Assembly (NCBI GenBank): GCA_963790475.1
Contig: CAWBOS010000001.1
Coordinates: 192,529 to 256,528 of the forward strand
Reading direction: 5' to 3'
Source: an uncultured delta proteobacterium
GTDB taxonomy: Bacteria > Desulfobacterota > RBG-13-43-22
Length of the DNA: 64,000 bases
Shown: positions 25,101-49,750 of the stretch, one piece after another
How the letters are laid out: each line of letters opens with the position of its first letter
Numbering within the stretch: the first letter of the stretch is position 1
Made by a program: the position numbers and the translations under genes
Notes under the pieces: generated by a model
What the model was told of the DNA's origin: nothing
The model's database searches: none
The model's input: the letters and a program-made list of their open reading frames with translations, nothing else

Positions 25101-25243
25101 GGTCGTCACCCCTTCTGGCGAATCCCGGGTCCAGGAGATTATAATTACTTAAAAACACTGAATTCCGGCTGGAGTCTTTCCCGCACTTGATGCGGGACCG
25201 GAATGACCTGATTTCGGTTTTGGCGACTTTTGTGAGTCCATCA
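25101..25243 (+). repeat. Repeat family D copy with extra TTCT in its first hairpin
   Basis: GTCGTCACCCC(TTCT)GGCGAA..GGGTCCAGG...ATTCCGGC...CCGGAATGAC...GCGACTTTT. Confidence 0.75.
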
Positions 25244-30581: not shown

Positions 30582-31841
30582 CTAAGCAGCCAGTTTTAAC
30601 GTTGCTCCTTTTGAATAATTTTCCATATATTCGTTATGATCACGCACCAAGGCAAAAATAACACCGAGAAGCTTCCGGGCAATGGCTACCAGGGCCTTGA
30701 TCTTGGGCATTCCTTGATCCAGATGCCTTTGATAGGCCGTATGCATCACTCCCCCTTTTCGAACCGTATTGATAGCGGCAAAAAAGAGGATTTTCCTAAG
30801 AAGCGACCGGCCTCTTTTGGATATATGACGATTCCCTTGGTGCCTTCCAGAACTGATTTCAAAGAGGTTCAGTCCGGCCAACTTCAGGACTTCAGCCAGC
30901 GTATGAAATTTACGAAAATCCCCGACTTCTCCAATCAGTCCGGCGGTGGTAACCTCTCCTATCCCTTTCAAGGACAGAATCGAATGACTATAGGGGATCT
31001 CGGGAAGAAGGGCCGCCATCTCCTGTTCCGCCTTCTCAATAAACTGGTCAGAAGATTCAATCTCAGAAAGAAGTTCTCGTATCTCAAAAAGAATCGCCTT
31101 GCGGCCTTCTTGAAGACCTACGGAATGGCCAGCGGCCGCATAAAGGGCCGGGGCTCGCTCTTTATCCAGCTTCCCTCGGCTAACCCGTCTCAGCGTGGCC
31201 CTCAAGGTCCCAAGACCACATTGGATAATATCTTCCGGGCACGGATAATGCCGCAACAGATATTGGGCACTGCGGGTTTTAATATTCTTCATCACTTGCA
31301 GAAACTCGGGGAAGACAATAAAGACCAAATCCTGAATCTGGTTCAAAAGGCCCGTTCGTCTTCGTATGGCTCTCTCCCTGGCATGGGTCAGTCGGCGAAG
31401 TTCAGCTGCCGCGCCTTCGGGAATGACCACGGTAAGGGCATGACCCAGCTCAATAATATCCGCAATGACTTTGGGATCTTTCCTATCCGTCTTATTGGGC
31501 GAGTTACCCTGGACTTCCTTCAACTTCTTCGTATGCATAGGATTAACCTGAACCAGTGTCACCGGCCGTTTCATCAGAAAATGTTGCAAGGGTTCTCCAT
31601 AAGACCCGGTGGATTCAAAACCAACCACGATTTCTTCCAAGTGATTGGCCTCTTTGGCCTCAACCATCCGATTCCAAAATTTCGTAAATCCTTGATCATT
31701 ATTGAAAAACTCAAAAGGTTTGATTTCCGTCCGGTCTGGACAGCGGCCATATCCCATATTGGTCGTTTTGCCTATGTCCACGGTACCGATAAGGGTTTTT
31801 TCATTGACCTTCTTAAGTTTTTTTGTTTCAATCTTATTCAT
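30582..31841 (-). CDS. IS110 family DEDD recombinase/transposase
   Basis: VDIGK, FESTG, KTDRKD, SSG catalytic Ser, SKRGRSLLR, ALVAIARKL. Confidence 0.95.
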   Translation of the reverse strand: MNKIETKKLKKVNEKTLIGTVDIGKTTNMGYGRCPDRTEIKPFEFFNNDQGFTKFWNRMVEAKEANHLEEIVVGFESTGSYGEPLQHFLMKRPVTLVQVNPMHTKKLKEVQGNSPNKTDRKDPKVIADIIELGHALTVVIPEGAAAELRRLTHARERAIRRRTGLLNQIQDLVFIVFPEFLQVMKNIKTRSAQYLLRHYPCPEDIIQCGLGTLRATLRRVSRGKLDKERAPALYAAAGHSVGLQEGRKAILFEIRELLSEIESSDQFIEKAEQEMAALLPEIPYSHSILSLKGIGEVTTAGLIGEVGDFRKFHTLAEVLKLAGLNLFEISSGRHQGNRHISKRGRSLLRKILFFAAINTVRKGGVMHTAYQRHLDQGMPKIKALVAIARKLLGVIFALVRDHNEYMENYSKGATLKLAA

Positions 31842-46231: not shown

Positions 46232-46525
46232 ATGGAACTAAATACAACCCGAATAGGGAAAAGGGGGACGGTTGTCATTCCAGCAGGACTTCGTCGTAAA
46301 TACCGGTTGGACGAAGGGTCTTTACTGGTTGCCGAAGAAAAGACGGATGGTATTCTCTTGCGCCCCGTAGTGGCCGTCCCGGTGGAGATTTATTCGCCTG
46401 AACGCCAGGCCGAATTTCTCTTGAATAATGTCACGGATTTAACCGACTATGCCTGGGCTAAAGAGGAGGTTCGAAAATTGGGGCTTGACCCAAATAAAAT
46501 CCCCCATGAAAAACCAAAGAAGTGA
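46232..46525 (+). CDS. AbrB/MazE-type antitoxin
   Basis: IGKRGTVVIPAGLRRKY...GILLRP. Confidence 0.88.
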   Translation: MELNTTRIGKRGTVVIPAGLRRKYRLDEGSLLVAEEKTDGILLRPVVAVPVEIYSPERQAEFLLNNVTDLTDYAWAKEEVRKLGLDPNKIPHEKPKK

Positions 46526-46966
46526 ATGGCTGTTTCTCCCCTCAAGATGAAAAACACGGCCGTCAAAAAAGACCGGATTTTTCTTGATGCTAATGTTTTA
46601 TTTTCCGCCGCTTATGGCAGTCCGGGTTTGAAACGTTTTTGGGAGTTAGCCCGAGAGGGTCGTTGTCGTTTATTAGCCTCCGGCTATGTCGTGGCAGAGG
46701 CCCGACGAAATCTCTCCGATCCGAGGCATTTAAAAAATCTGGAAGATTTGCTGTCCGAGGTTCAAATCATAACGGATGTTGTTTTTCAGATACCCTGCCC
46801 AATTGACCTGCCGGAAAAAGATCGTCCGATATTCTTAGCTGCCATGGCCAGCAAGGCCGATTATCTCATCACTGGCGATCGATCCCACTTCGGAAAATAT
46901 TTCGGCCAGACCATAAAAGGAATAAAAATTCGGAAGCCTAAAGATTATTTCTCAAACCGCCCCTGA
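46526..46966 (+). CDS. PIN-domain (VapC-like) toxin
   Basis: FLDANVLFSA, EARRN, KDRPI, LITGD..HF. Confidence 0.88.
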   Translation: MAVSPLKMKNTAVKKDRIFLDANVLFSAAYGSPGLKRFWELAREGRCRLLASGYVVAEARRNLSDPRHLKNLEDLLSEVQIITDVVFQIPCPIDLPEKDRPIFLAAMASKADYLITGDRSHFGKYFGQTIKGIKIRKPKDYFSNRP

Positions 46967-47264: not shown

Positions 47265-47340
47265 TGGCGCGCCCAAGAGGATTCGAACCTCCGACCGACG
47301 GATTCGTAGTCCGGCACTCTATCCACTGAGCTATGGGCGC
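47265..47340 (-). tRNA. tRNA-Arg (anticodon ACG)
   Basis: GCGCCCATAGCTCAGTGGATAGAGTGCCGGACT-ACG-AATCCGTCGGTCGGAGGTTCGAATCCTCTTGGGCGCGCCA; full cloverleaf with CCA. Confidence 0.96.
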
Positions 47341-47634
47341 ATTGAAGAAAATATAAACCGAAAGGCCGAAACTGTCAACCCCATTCGGGATTGAAATAAT
47401 TTTAAAAAAGGAGTAAAGGTAACGCTTTGGAATAGTATCTGTTTGGAATAGTATCTGTTACGAGATTACGGTTTGAGGGATTAAGCAAAAGGATTCTGGG
47501 GCTGGTCCGGAAACTTGTAACTCGTAACCCGTAACCTGATGAGGGACTCGCAAAAAGTCGTCACCCCTTCTATGTTGAAAAGCAAGTCTTTTTTATTAGA
47601 GAATGACTTTTTTAAGGTTTTTAAGGTTTTTAAG

Positions 47635-47975
47635 ATAAACCTCTTCACGGACGGCTGCCTGGATGATTTCCTGAGGAGGCTGAACTACCTGCGATAGAAA
47701 CAGGCGGCCATCCGTGAAGAGGTCACTTTTGGCAATTCCTTTTTAACCGCAGGAGATAGCCAAGGAAGCCGATCCGTCGATTAATTGATACCAAACTTGA
47801 GGGCTGGACCAATCTTTCAAATCAACCTTCTATCAGCAGACATATCTTGATGGATCGCTGCAGAATCTTGATAATGTTAAAATCGTGGGCACGGAGTCTA
47901 GTGAAGAGCAGGCATCATCTGCCGATGAGCTGCAGGGGTGACGGACCGTTTATGCCCACGAGCCGATTTATCGGA
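47635..47975 (-). ncRNA. Candidate bridge/seek RNA of IS110 element 2, multi-domain
   Basis: Target loop 47883-47961 with CGTCACCCCT (10/10 to left flank) and TTCACTAG (pairs with the right flank); further stems at 47770-47857, 47730-47762, 47639-47723. Confidence 0.72.
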
Positions 47976-47997
47976 TTGGAAGCACCTCTTCGGGTTA

Positions 47998-49068
47998 TTA
48001 TTGAACTACACCAGGCACATATTCCACCTGGTTCTTTAACACATAACGAATGCGGTTGAGCAGTTTCCGGGCGATCTTGATAATGGCCCTGGTTTTCTTC
48101 ATCCGTTGGCAATATTCATTAAAGGCCAAAAGCAGGACCGGGTCCTTGCGGGCCGCCACCCAGGCGGCTTCGATGAGCAAAGCCCTTAATTGGGGGTTTC
48201 GCCGGTGGGTTAAGTTTTTTATATGTTCGGTCTCCCCACTGGATTCGACATCGGGGATTAATCCGACATAACTGGCCAACTTGTCGAGGGAGGCAAAGCG
48301 GGCCAACTCACCCAGCTCGGTCAGGAAAATCATGGCCGCCAGGGTACTGATCCCCGGGATCGTTTTTAACAACCGGACCATTTCGCGATATTCTGCTTCC
48401 CGGGCAAGCAAAATGATGGACCGGTTTAAAGAAGCGATGATCCGTTTCAGATGATGGAGTTCGTCCAAGTGGGCCTTGAGGGCCACATCGCCACTGGTCC
48501 GCTCCATACGAAGATTTTCGAGACAGCCAAGAAATTTTTGAGACCAATGGCGGTCAACAACTTCTTCGGGCAGAGTAATCCCATAGAAGTAAAGGAGCGC
48601 CTTAATTTGATTTTTACACCGGGTTTGCTTTCTCACCATACTTTGGCGGGTTCGAACCAGACTGCGATCCTCCAGCTTCGGACGGCTCGGGACGTAAATC
48701 CCTTTCAGTTCCCCGCTCCGGAGGCTCCTGCCCAGCTTGCGGCTGTCGGTTCGATCCCGCCTAGTGGTCCGTTCTTTATTGGTCGTCGGGACATCGGCCG
48801 GGTTGACCACGATGCAATTCACCCCTTTTTCCTGAAGCTGATCGTGAGCCCAGAAGCCGCTAAACCCGGCCTCATAGGCCGCCTGATAGCTCGCTCCAGG
48901 AAAGTTCTTTCGAAGATAATGGACCAGTTTGTCTGCTTCTGGAGGTTGGGTAAAAGTCTTATGCTCGCACTGTCTAGAAAAAATGCTCACGCTCCAACTC
49001 TTCTTGTGGACATCCAGTCCCACGTAAATCGATTGACCCGAAAAATCCAATTTGTTAATCTGTACCAC
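47998..49068 (-). CDS. IS110 family DEDD recombinase/transposase
   Basis: VGLDVHK, YEAG, RDRTD, IPGIS, YVGLIP..ESSG, IARKL. Confidence 0.95.
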   Translation of the reverse strand: MVQINKLDFSGQSIYVGLDVHKKSWSVSIFSRQCEHKTFTQPPEADKLVHYLRKNFPGASYQAAYEAGFSGFWAHDQLQEKGVNCIVVNPADVPTTNKERTTRRDRTDSRKLGRSLRSGELKGIYVPSRPKLEDRSLVRTRQSMVRKQTRCKNQIKALLYFYGITLPEEVVDRHWSQKFLGCLENLRMERTSGDVALKAHLDELHHLKRIIASLNRSIILLAREAEYREMVRLLKTIPGISTLAAMIFLTELGELARFASLDKLASYVGLIPDVESSGETEHIKNLTHRRNPQLRALLIEAAWVAARKDPVLLLAFNEYCQRMKKTRAIIKIARKLLNRIRYVLKNQVEYVPGVVQ

Positions 49069-49156
49069 GGCAAGTCTCCTTTCGGTTTGTTTTTTTACCC
49101 TAAAAAAAGTATATCCGAAAGCTTCGAGACTTGCCTTTCTTTTTCAATCATAAGGT

Positions 49157-49265
49157 CTGGTGAAAACCGGGGTCCAGGGGTTTTATAACCTGTTGAAGTC
49201 CCTGGATTCCGACTTTCGTCGGAATGACTCAAATGGGCTTTCAGCGACTTTTTGCGAGTCCATCA
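49157..49265 (+). repeat. Right part of the interrupted family D repeat (left part 47537-47568)
   Basis: Closely matches 33755-33848; outer TIR GACTCGCAAAAAGTCG / CGACTTTTTGCGAGTC. Confidence 0.8.
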
Positions 49266-49315: not shown

Positions 49316-49750
49316 ATGAAAGATTCTATGACCACAACGAATTGTGTCTTTTGTAAAATTATTGCCGGAAAAATCCCGGGCATAAAAGTGCTGGAAGACG
49401 ACCGGTCTTTGGCCTTTATGGATATCAATCCTCGTTCAGATGGTCATTGTCTGATAATCCCCAAGACTCATGCCCCGACCCTTTTCGATATCGGAGAGGA
49501 TGATCTGCAGGCGGTAACGCACACGGCCAGGAAAGTGGCTATGGCTATCAAGACCTCGCTGGCACCGGACGGCATGCTTGTTTATCAGCTTAACGGACGG
49601 GCGGCCATGCAGCTTGTCGACCATTTTCATCTTCACCTGGTCCCGCGGTGGGAAAACGACGGGGTGGATTTGTCCCACGGCTTTCAGCCCGGGGACCCGG
49701 AAAAGATCCGGGCAATTGCTGCCAAGATCGTTGGGGCGATATCGGATTAA
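49316..49750 (+). CDS. HIT family hydrolase
   Basis: CVFCKI, AFMDINP..GHCLIIPK, HFHLHLVPR. Confidence 0.92.
   Translation: MKDSMTTTNCVFCKIIAGKIPGIKVLEDDRSLAFMDINPRSDGHCLIIPKTHAPTLFDIGEDDLQAVTHTARKVAMAIKTSLAPDGMLVYQLNGRAAMQLVDHFHLHLVPRWENDGVDLSHGFQPGDPEKIRAIAAKIVGAISD

Follow-up and report, generated by a model that had tools for sequence, protein, structure and literature searches.

Does the long non-coding region downstream of an IS110-family transposase gene encode one expanded guide RNA with several helical domains, or a standard guide RNA to which something else has been added? The question is posed by a 1.59-kb insertion sequence (IS) located at positions 47567–49158 of the 64,000-nt stretch of DNA that we analysed (hereafter the window), with its transposase gene on the minus strand. 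An earlier note on this DNA, the original prediction, took the region for an expanded bridge/seek RNA with extra domains or a non-canonical mode of donor recognition. The main value of our result is negative: the apparent large multi-domain guide RNA resolves into what reads as a standard two-loop bridge RNA with an add-on, so that donor recognition requires no new mode. Our preferred reading, which comparison of sequences leads us to hold with a probability of roughly 0.7, is that the two-loop bridge RNA is followed by a clade-specific hairpin insert that would act as a terminator or insulator in cis or protect the 3' end of the transcript. The parts of the element that carry the argument are as follows.

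47567–49158, minus strand: the whole IS, including a copy of the CT core (AG on the transposase strand) at each junction; ends common to the copies in this genome and to relatives.
47998–49068, minus strand: intact IS110-family DEDD transposase of 356 amino acids, with PF01548 and PF02371 matches.
47883–47961, minus strand: target-binding loop, 79 nt, seekRNA-sized; from inverted repeats, a fold z-score of -3.1 and covariation of guides with flanks.
47821–47872, minus strand: predicted donor-binding loop with outer stem AUCAA/UUGAU, inner stem GCAG/CUGC and an apical hairpin; conserved in 69 of 69 aligned relatives.
47797–47820, minus strand: conserved linker after the donor loop (..AAAGAUUGG..), also found in short-spacer relatives; from alignments.
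47632–47796, minus strand: clade-specific insert of ~160 nt, made of a small hairpin (~47729–47766) and a long hairpin (47639–47723); from relatives, pair covariation and a profile search.

The element body without the cores spans 47569–49156. Its boundaries were set by five further copies in the same genome, which share its ends and have different flanks, and by the conserved ends of 160 relatives (80 from species genomes and 80 from metagenomes, with 53–89% protein identity). In this genome, six further copies, full or partial, have these ends in different repetitive extragenic palindromic (REP) flanks. The transposase combines a DEDD (RuvC-like) N-terminal domain (PF01548, E = 3e-12) with an IS116/IS110/IS902 C-terminal domain (PF02371, E = 5e-21), and model NF033542, 'IS110 family RNA-guided transposase', scores it at 201.6 bits (cut-off, 140). 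Its sequence matches to the solved transposases of ISCro4 and IS621 are weak. The stretch GLIPDVESSG in the translation fits the IS1111 motif GL-P----S(t)G, and a GL-P----SG motif has been described for the C-terminal domain of IS1111 transposases (PMC11187229). From stop codon to element end there are 431 nt of non-coding DNA (47567–47997), in agreement with the ~430 nt originally claimed, versus 88 nt upstream of the gene. The expectation that the element is of IS1111 type and encodes its guide RNA downstream of the gene is supported, and we classify it as a predicted site-specific, RNA-guided IS of the IS1111 group within the IS110 family; it occupies one copy of a REP-like palindrome.

The relatives resemble the window's non-coding region in two blocks, made up of the ~200 nt that follow the stop codon and of the last ~35 nt, and the gap between the blocks is far shorter in most relatives than in the window element. 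The first block is predicted to encode a canonical two-loop bridge/seek RNA, and its first loop is the target-binding one. The outer stem of this loop pairs TCGTGGGCA with TGCCCACGA (9 nt, 100% complementary, 47883–47891 and 47953–47961), as had been proposed, and encloses an inner hairpin at 47908–47933, the helix of which covaries. The claimed 10/10 match to the left flank holds as well: flank CGTCACCCCT (47559–47568) recurs on the minus strand at 47934–47943, where it forms guide 1, CGUCACCCCU. This 10-mer occurs three times in the window, against 0.11 occurrences expected, and none of 100 shuffles reaches three. The second proposed pairing, between RNA-strand TTCACTAG (47898–47905) and flank CTGGTGAA (49157–49164), is likewise present with one T/C position; guide 2, UUCACUAG (47898–47905), is followed by AC (47896–47897), the first two bases of the left end. 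Guide 1 is the 10 nt before the inner stem and the reverse complement of the DNA after the right end; guide 2 is the ~6 nt plus AG after the inner stem and equals the DNA before the left end.

That this domain is a real target-binding loop is borne out by the relatives, in which the two guides change together with the flanks. Between guide 1 and its own right-end flank the mean match is 9.2 of 10 positions, compared with 7.4 when flanks are permuted (88 unique pairs), and guide 2 matches its own flank at 4.9 of 8 positions, compared with 2.7 (66 unique pairs); for each guide, 0 of 2000 permutations reached the observed value. There are 26 and 47 distinct variants of guides 1 and 2, respectively, and some relatives target sequences quite unlike REPs. 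The U that follows guide 1 and the AC that follows guide 2 match the adjoining bases of the element ends and, by analogy, resemble the handshake guides of IS621 (PMC13626964). Within the loop, the match to the top strand lies 5' of the match to the bottom strand, the order found in IS1111 seekRNAs (PMC11187229).

The original prediction could assign no canonical donor loop. One is predicted at 47821–47872, and it is conserved in all scorable relatives. The 3' strand of the loop carries the donor guide AUAGAAG (47827–47833), which corresponds to the five terminal bases of the right end together with the core; where the right ends of relatives read ..ATAAA or ..ATAGG, the loop reads AUAAAAG or AUAGGAG. 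The donor 7-mer tracks the right end in 113 of 115 unique loci, through three variants (99, 9 and 5 loci), and donor recognition therefore looks canonical on at least one side. On the other side, an invariant GUCU (47838–47841) is complementary to the core plus the first two left-end bases (AC), and is a candidate only for a left-end donor guide. Three short matches to the element ends had been noted in the non-coding region, ATAGAAG, TTCTAT and AATCAT. All three are present, and the first is the donor guide; the other two lie in the loop region of the long hairpin of the insert and are not conserved in relatives.

Both loops are built alike, with an outer stem, two single strands, an inner GCAG/CUGC stem and a variable apical hairpin. 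For a joint alignment, 149 segments were reduced to 75 at 93% similarity, of which 69 were aligned (L155, out of range, the short loci L079 and L082, and the over-long L028, L086 and L089 were left out). The covariation score on these 69 sequences is 0.210, as compared to 0.102 in shuffles (0 of 500 as high) and 0.036–0.062 when the partners are slid. Double changes are found in five of six pairs of the apical helix of the target loop and in all four pairs of that of the donor loop. The sizes agree with those reported for seekRNAs (70–100 nt) and long seekRNAs (145–170 nt; PMC11187229): the target loop has 79 nt, and both loops together take up ~160 nt. Rfam yielded no bridge-RNA-like family for the window region (E ≤ 1) or for eight relatives (E ≤ 0.1); the matches obtained were a tRNA and chance miRNA/snoRNA-like matches to hairpins.

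What, then, is the rest of the region? Between the donor loop and the right-end inverted repeat lies the ~160-nt insert, dominated by a long hairpin whose ~23-bp stem was correctly described (23 nt, 91% complementary, 47639–47661/47701–47723). Folded alone, this hairpin has an energy of -50.1 kcal/mol (z = -7.8). Within the window's subgroup, UUUAUCUU comes immediately after it on the transposase strand and an A-run before it. Within the clade, the long hairpin is present in 15 of 16 members, and 15 of its 24 consensus pairs show compensatory double changes. The insert is at the same time the fastest-diverging segment in the window's clade, with 50–68% identity versus 75–80% for the transposase gene. 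The small hairpin upstream of the long one varies in form and is missing in L093 and L096; L094 is without the long hairpin, and L012 keeps half of the insert.

Among the 164 sequences with a transposase match, 132 contain both anchor motifs (the remainder are truncated contigs or have diverged motifs). The spacing from the donor loop to the right-end repeat is 60–99 nt in 91 of these 132 and longer, in discrete groups, in the other 41. By z-scores against mononucleotide shuffles (n = 100), the short 60–99-nt spacers are unstructured (z ~0), and the inserts of four groups are strongly structured (z from -3 to -10). On a quick maximum-likelihood tree of the transposase (100 distinct full-length proteins of 125), the long state needs six changes, at least four of them forced by well-supported branches, and the long forms fall into separate clades, namely the window's clade (14 rows, support 99), the L023 group (11), the L047 group (6), the L028 group (3) and two singletons. 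The insert sequences of different groups are unrelated to each other. At least four lineages thus appear to have independently gained unrelated hairpin-rich inserts at this exact position, each confined to its IS. The proposal of an expanded bridge RNA with extra domains is not supported by this comparison: the ~160 nt in question are absent from most relatives, diverge fastest and contain end matches that are not conserved. The remaining 'domains' are best explained as a lineage-specific add-on without guides, not as extra guide machinery, and their function is probably accessory.

A profile search of this genome found the insert only in its five IS copies and nowhere as a stand-alone sequence; in three other groups, too, the host genomes contain the insert only together with its IS copies. 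An origin of the inserts from a host repeat or a miniature inverted-repeat transposable element (MITE) is therefore unsupported by the four genomes. A MITE-like hitchhiker of the MITEPpu9/ssr9 type, which would be flanked by its own IS ends, is not supported either: these genomes gave no matches outside IS copies, and self-comparison showed no internal copies of the ends. Inspection by eye of the insert boundaries for half-matches to the donor ends gave none that was convincing.

How the insert might work depends on what surrounds it at the two ends of the element, which are organised as follows.

47569–47631, minus strand: right-end terminus, with an A/T-rich CTTAAAAA repeat, the second inverted-repeat arm (47606–47617) and the right arm of the subterminal inverted repeat (47577–47589); from an inverted-repeat search.
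49069–49156, minus strand: left end, with a -10-like TATGAT (49147–49152), the left arm of the subterminal inverted repeat (49127–49139) and a hairpin (49069–49078/49126–49135); from an inverted-repeat search and the sequence.

The right-end terminus also holds a -35-like TTGCTT (47580–47585) and the terminal ..CAACATAGA, and is conserved in relatives. Both subterminal repeats that had been claimed are there, 47577–47589/49127–49139 (13 nt, 92%) and 47606–47617/49099–49110 (12 nt, 92%), the 13-nt length being within the ~7–17 bp expected of the IS1111 group. The predicted junction promoter can also be reconstructed: once the ends are joined over one 2-nt core, TTGCTT (47585–47580) and TATGAT (49152–49147) would stand 17 nt apart. 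The circle junction itself was sought in four DNA contig sets and none was seen. Every sequence feature named in the original prediction is present, in place or displaced by at most 1–2 nt, which confirms its observations, as distinct from what it made of them. At the left end, the perfect 10-nt inverted repeat 49069–49078/49126–49135 pairs the region of the subterminal repeat with the ribosome-binding region before the GTG start, and could form a translation-blocking structure in the 5' leader.

In the mechanism that we favour, the target loop would pair with both strands of the REP target around the 2-nt core and the donor loop with the element's own joined ends. The window's clade would have gained, between the donor loop and the right-end inverted repeat, the ~160-nt insert dominated by the ~23-bp hairpin. 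This hairpin, which has the bridge RNA on one side and the -35 element of the junction promoter on the other, would act in cis, either as a terminator or insulator that keeps transcription from crossing the right end and the junction promoter, or by protecting the 3' end of the transposase–bridge RNA transcript. The sequences themselves show the family, the boundaries, both loops with their covarying guides, and an insert that is restricted to the clade, conserved in structure and absent outside IS copies; transcription of the region, binding of its RNA by protein and a function for the hairpin we infer. Termination, insulation and 3' protection are among the possible functions of the hairpin, and we rate them together at somewhat less than even odds. 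A wider proposal, that the structured module is a functional and repeatedly invented accessory of IS1111-type bridge RNAs, be it a terminator/insulator or an RNA-stabilising 3' cap, is tentative and rather unlikely; if true, the module would shield the junction promoter and the recombination site from read-through, or raise bridge-RNA levels.

Several observations weigh against this account. A terminator scan, the rules of which admit loops of 3–8 nt only, did not flag the long hairpin. In the other subgroup of the clade (L011, L014, L015, L016, L099 and L101) the transposase strand has a weak U-tract, and it is the opposite strand that has the better T-run. When the folds of the two strands are compared, the transposase strand is the more stable one in 6 of 15 cases (G–U pairs, 45 versus 25); in the absence of a strand bias in stability, RNA-level selection on the transposase strand is not demonstrated, and it is possible that the hairpin acts at the DNA level or has no role at all. 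The pair table of the long hairpin contains about 15 G–U cells and 15 A–C cells; per-sequence folds give 44 G–U versus 8 A–C/C–A single mismatches, a count that includes non-homologous hairpins in 5 of 16 rows. Furthermore, the 91 of 132 relatives with short spacers do without any such structure. As for the two loops, the outer helix of the target loop is only 44.7% paired on the 69-sequence alignment, which we put down to a 2-column shift of the first rows, and comparison of the 5' strand of the donor loop with the left end yielded no guide: this strand varies while the left end is nearly invariant, and so no left-end guide was assigned.

The best-surviving alternative, which we nonetheless regard as unlikely, is that the insert is a functionless or selfish passenger palindrome captured in a permissive right-end spot, with the hairpin persisting through DNA-level self-correction. 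The rapid evolution of the segment, the lack of strand bias and the loss of parts by clade members (the long hairpin in L094, the small one in L093 and L096, half of the insert in L012) all fit a passenger, as do copy F of this genome, which is without the insert segment, and one contig from the four DNA contig sets that skips 47588–47809 (side 23 nt) and resembles a short-form relative. A recent preprint also reports that IS110 elements can have an extended 3' non-coding region and grow stepwise by capture (10.64898/2026.08.14.744561). A captured palindrome is harder to reconcile with the compensatory double changes in 15 of 24 pairs across sequences of only 50–68% identity, with strongly structured inserts at the same place in four independent lineages, and with the lack of stand-alone copies in this genome and the three other host genomes.

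Quite improbable, in our view, is a small-RNA gene on the plus strand of the window that would act as an antisense regulator of the bridge RNA or transposase transcript, by analogy with Asr9/Ssr9 of ISPpu9, an element that does have IS-associated small RNAs (PMC12288879). A promoter-like TTGAAA-18-GAGAAT at 47575–47604 on the plus strand points into the insert, the hairpin is equally stable on that strand and T-runs follow it there, with seven T's 5 nt past the stem in the L015/L016/L099 subgroup. The T-runs do not abut the stem, however, and the promoter match is weak (9 of 12 positions) and one of six such sites in the region, where 1.5 are expected. Least probable of all is the expanded RNA of the original prediction, the whole ~430 nt acting as one bridge/seek RNA whose extra helical domains join in recombination, for instance by recognising donor ends non-canonically: the insert does keep its structure within the clade through compensatory changes, follows the two loops directly on the same strand and occupies a site at which structured inserts arose in at least four lineages, and the unassigned left-end donor guide leaves part of donor recognition unexplained, but a conserved donor loop with a co-varying guide already exists, the 91 relatives without the insert have the same ends and the same two loops, TTCTAT and AATCAT inside the insert are not conserved among clade members, inserts of different lineages are unrelated in sequence, and the left end hardly varies, whether or not a lineage has an insert.

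The two-loop reading with a clade-specific insert leaves the target itself to be considered, and in particular the observation that the reconstructed target is 1 nt longer than the usual repeat. The flanks are:

47544–47568, no strand assigned: left flank (downstream of the right end), half of the REP-like palindrome, ..CGTCACCCC(T); from copy comparison.
49157–49185, no strand assigned: right flank (upstream of the left end), the other half of the palindrome, (CT)GGTGAAAACCGGGGTCCAGG; from copy comparison.

The REP-like palindrome family has 203 matches in the genome, with commonest forms ..GTCAYYCC-GG..hairpin..GGRRTCCAG. Copies A, B, C, E, F and G of the element occupy the identical position of the palindrome, and copy D fits on one side only; insertion at one conserved target position also holds in relatives. 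The native repeat reads CCCC-GG in nearly all 203 copies, which bears out the 1-nt difference. The C-run allows guide 1 to pair in two registers. In that of relatives whose guide ends in ..CUU, the window guide reads CGUCACC + CC + U and fits a native REP with a GG core. The junctions expected for this register, AG at the left end and GG at the right end, are found in 28 unique insertions of REP-targeting relatives, and hence the first core position differs between donor (AG) and target (GG). One extra base is present at the right-end junction of another 13 unique insertions, the two intact copies of this genome among them. The original prediction's hint of a core that tolerates mismatches is therefore supported in modified form, as a putative donor AG versus target GG difference at the first core position.

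Rare REP copies across the genome carry +T, +TT or +TCT exactly at the insertion point, and one REP copy in the window (25104–25120) carries +TTCT there. The +TCT and +TTCT forms are the expected leftover of excision at the AG three bases inside the right end (..AG-A-AG), and may be excision footprints. Taken together, the junctions and REP variants point to tolerance at the first core position and in the cutting register. The four DNA contig sets gave two joints, both weak; besides the contig that skips 47588–47809, a 151-nt contig joins 47567 to 49161 with two other letters between (side 21 nt); it may stem from any REP copy, and is thus silent on the window site before insertion.

Around the insertion site there is a larger palindromic unit, with GGACTCGCAAAAAGTCG on the left (47544–47561) mirrored by CGACTTTTTGCGAGTCC on the right (49244–49262) and a second REP-like hairpin between the two, an arrangement that resembles a bacterial interspersed mosaic element (BIME) or a REPIN (a REP doublet forming a hairpin). 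In the integrated state the REP flank offers a -35-like TGGACC 18 nt upstream of the left-end TATGAT (minus strand, 49147–49176), which could make a hybrid promoter of target and element.

Beyond the window element, the same genome contains a second intact copy (99% identical), a frameshifted copy (89% identity), an internally deleted copy and three remnants, one of which keeps just the two loops, joined straight to the right end. The decayed copies are:

G000:C12:171499–173087, C12:1483070–1484522, C15:486196–486889, C13:444756–445049 and C12:755206–755482: one frameshift near residue 240, one internal deletion and three remnants among them.

Two relatives show duplications at the right end: in L095, AG and a repeat of the right-end terminus come after it, and L021 has a tandem duplication of 17 nt made up of right end and flank. 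The window also contains a second, unrelated IS110-family transposase gene at ~30729–30983 (G000:C1:223257–223511; open frame of 428 amino acids). By PF02371 search, this type is found at 10 further places in the genome and a third type (401 amino acids) at three places. A tRNA gene (65.2 bits) lies at 47268–47340 on the minus strand, ~230 nt from the right end of the element. The neighbouring open reading frames (46232–46966 and 49316–49750) we take to resemble, putatively, an AbrB/MazE-type antitoxin with a PIN-domain protein, and a HIT-family hydrolase.

For research on bridge recombinases and their engineering, the interest of this lineage lies in a guide data set, an insert site and a tolerance of core and register. 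It constitutes a rich natural set of reprogrammed target guides (the 26 and 47 variants), together with a donor guide that co-varies with the right end. The recurring structured inserts mark a permissive, and possibly useful, site at the right end for 3' modules.

How does the element compare with systems already described? A literature search for modules of this kind returned only the ISPpu9 paper (PMC12288879) and the 2026 preprint (10.64898/2026.08.14.744561); the supplements of PMC11187229 and PMC11208160, which lie outside this coverage, may show long right ends or extra hairpins. ISPpu9, with its MITEPpu9/ssr9, is likewise an IS110-family element in REP sequences with an AG core and an additional structured RNA-like module downstream of the transposase gene that close relatives lack; this ssr9 module has been shown to be dispensable for transposition (PMC12288879). 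Unlike the window insert, which has neither an internal end nor stand-alone copies, ssr9 has its own IS end boxes, stand-alone copies and separate minicircles. According to the preprint, an extended 3' non-coding region is frequent among natural IS110 elements, which depart from the compact model by growing through additions within their boundaries, non-coding extensions among them (10.64898/2026.08.14.744561); an extended right end as such is therefore not new. The extensions described there share homology with flanking chromosomal DNA and have half-matches to the donor ends as their borders, whereas for the window insert the profile search gave no homology to other DNA of this genome.

The IS621 bridge RNA (PMC11208160; PMC13626964) has two internal loops, for target and donor, as predicted for the window element, and the same 2-nt core size. 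Core-adjacent bases that match the other partner in handshake-like fashion are also shared (here AC after guide 2 and T after guide 1), as is a promoter formed across the circle junction, which for our element is a prediction. In contrast to IS621, the window element has its RNA 3' and not 5' of the gene, shows the opposite order of guides, carries long subterminal repeats and has an AG core on the transposase strand (CT on the other), with only one donor guide assigned. The closest likeness is to ISPa11, ISEc11 and ISKpn4 of the IS1111 group (PMC11187229): a DEDD transposase of ~340–356 amino acids with the GL-P----SG motif, subterminal inverted repeats, a long non-coding region downstream of the gene, and a 70–100-nt RNA with an internal loop in which the top strand of the target is matched 5' of the bottom strand. 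ISPa11, moreover, also targets a REP. What sets the window element apart is the length of its non-coding region, 431 nt where its own relatives mostly have ~265 nt, and the excess is the clade-specific hairpin module.

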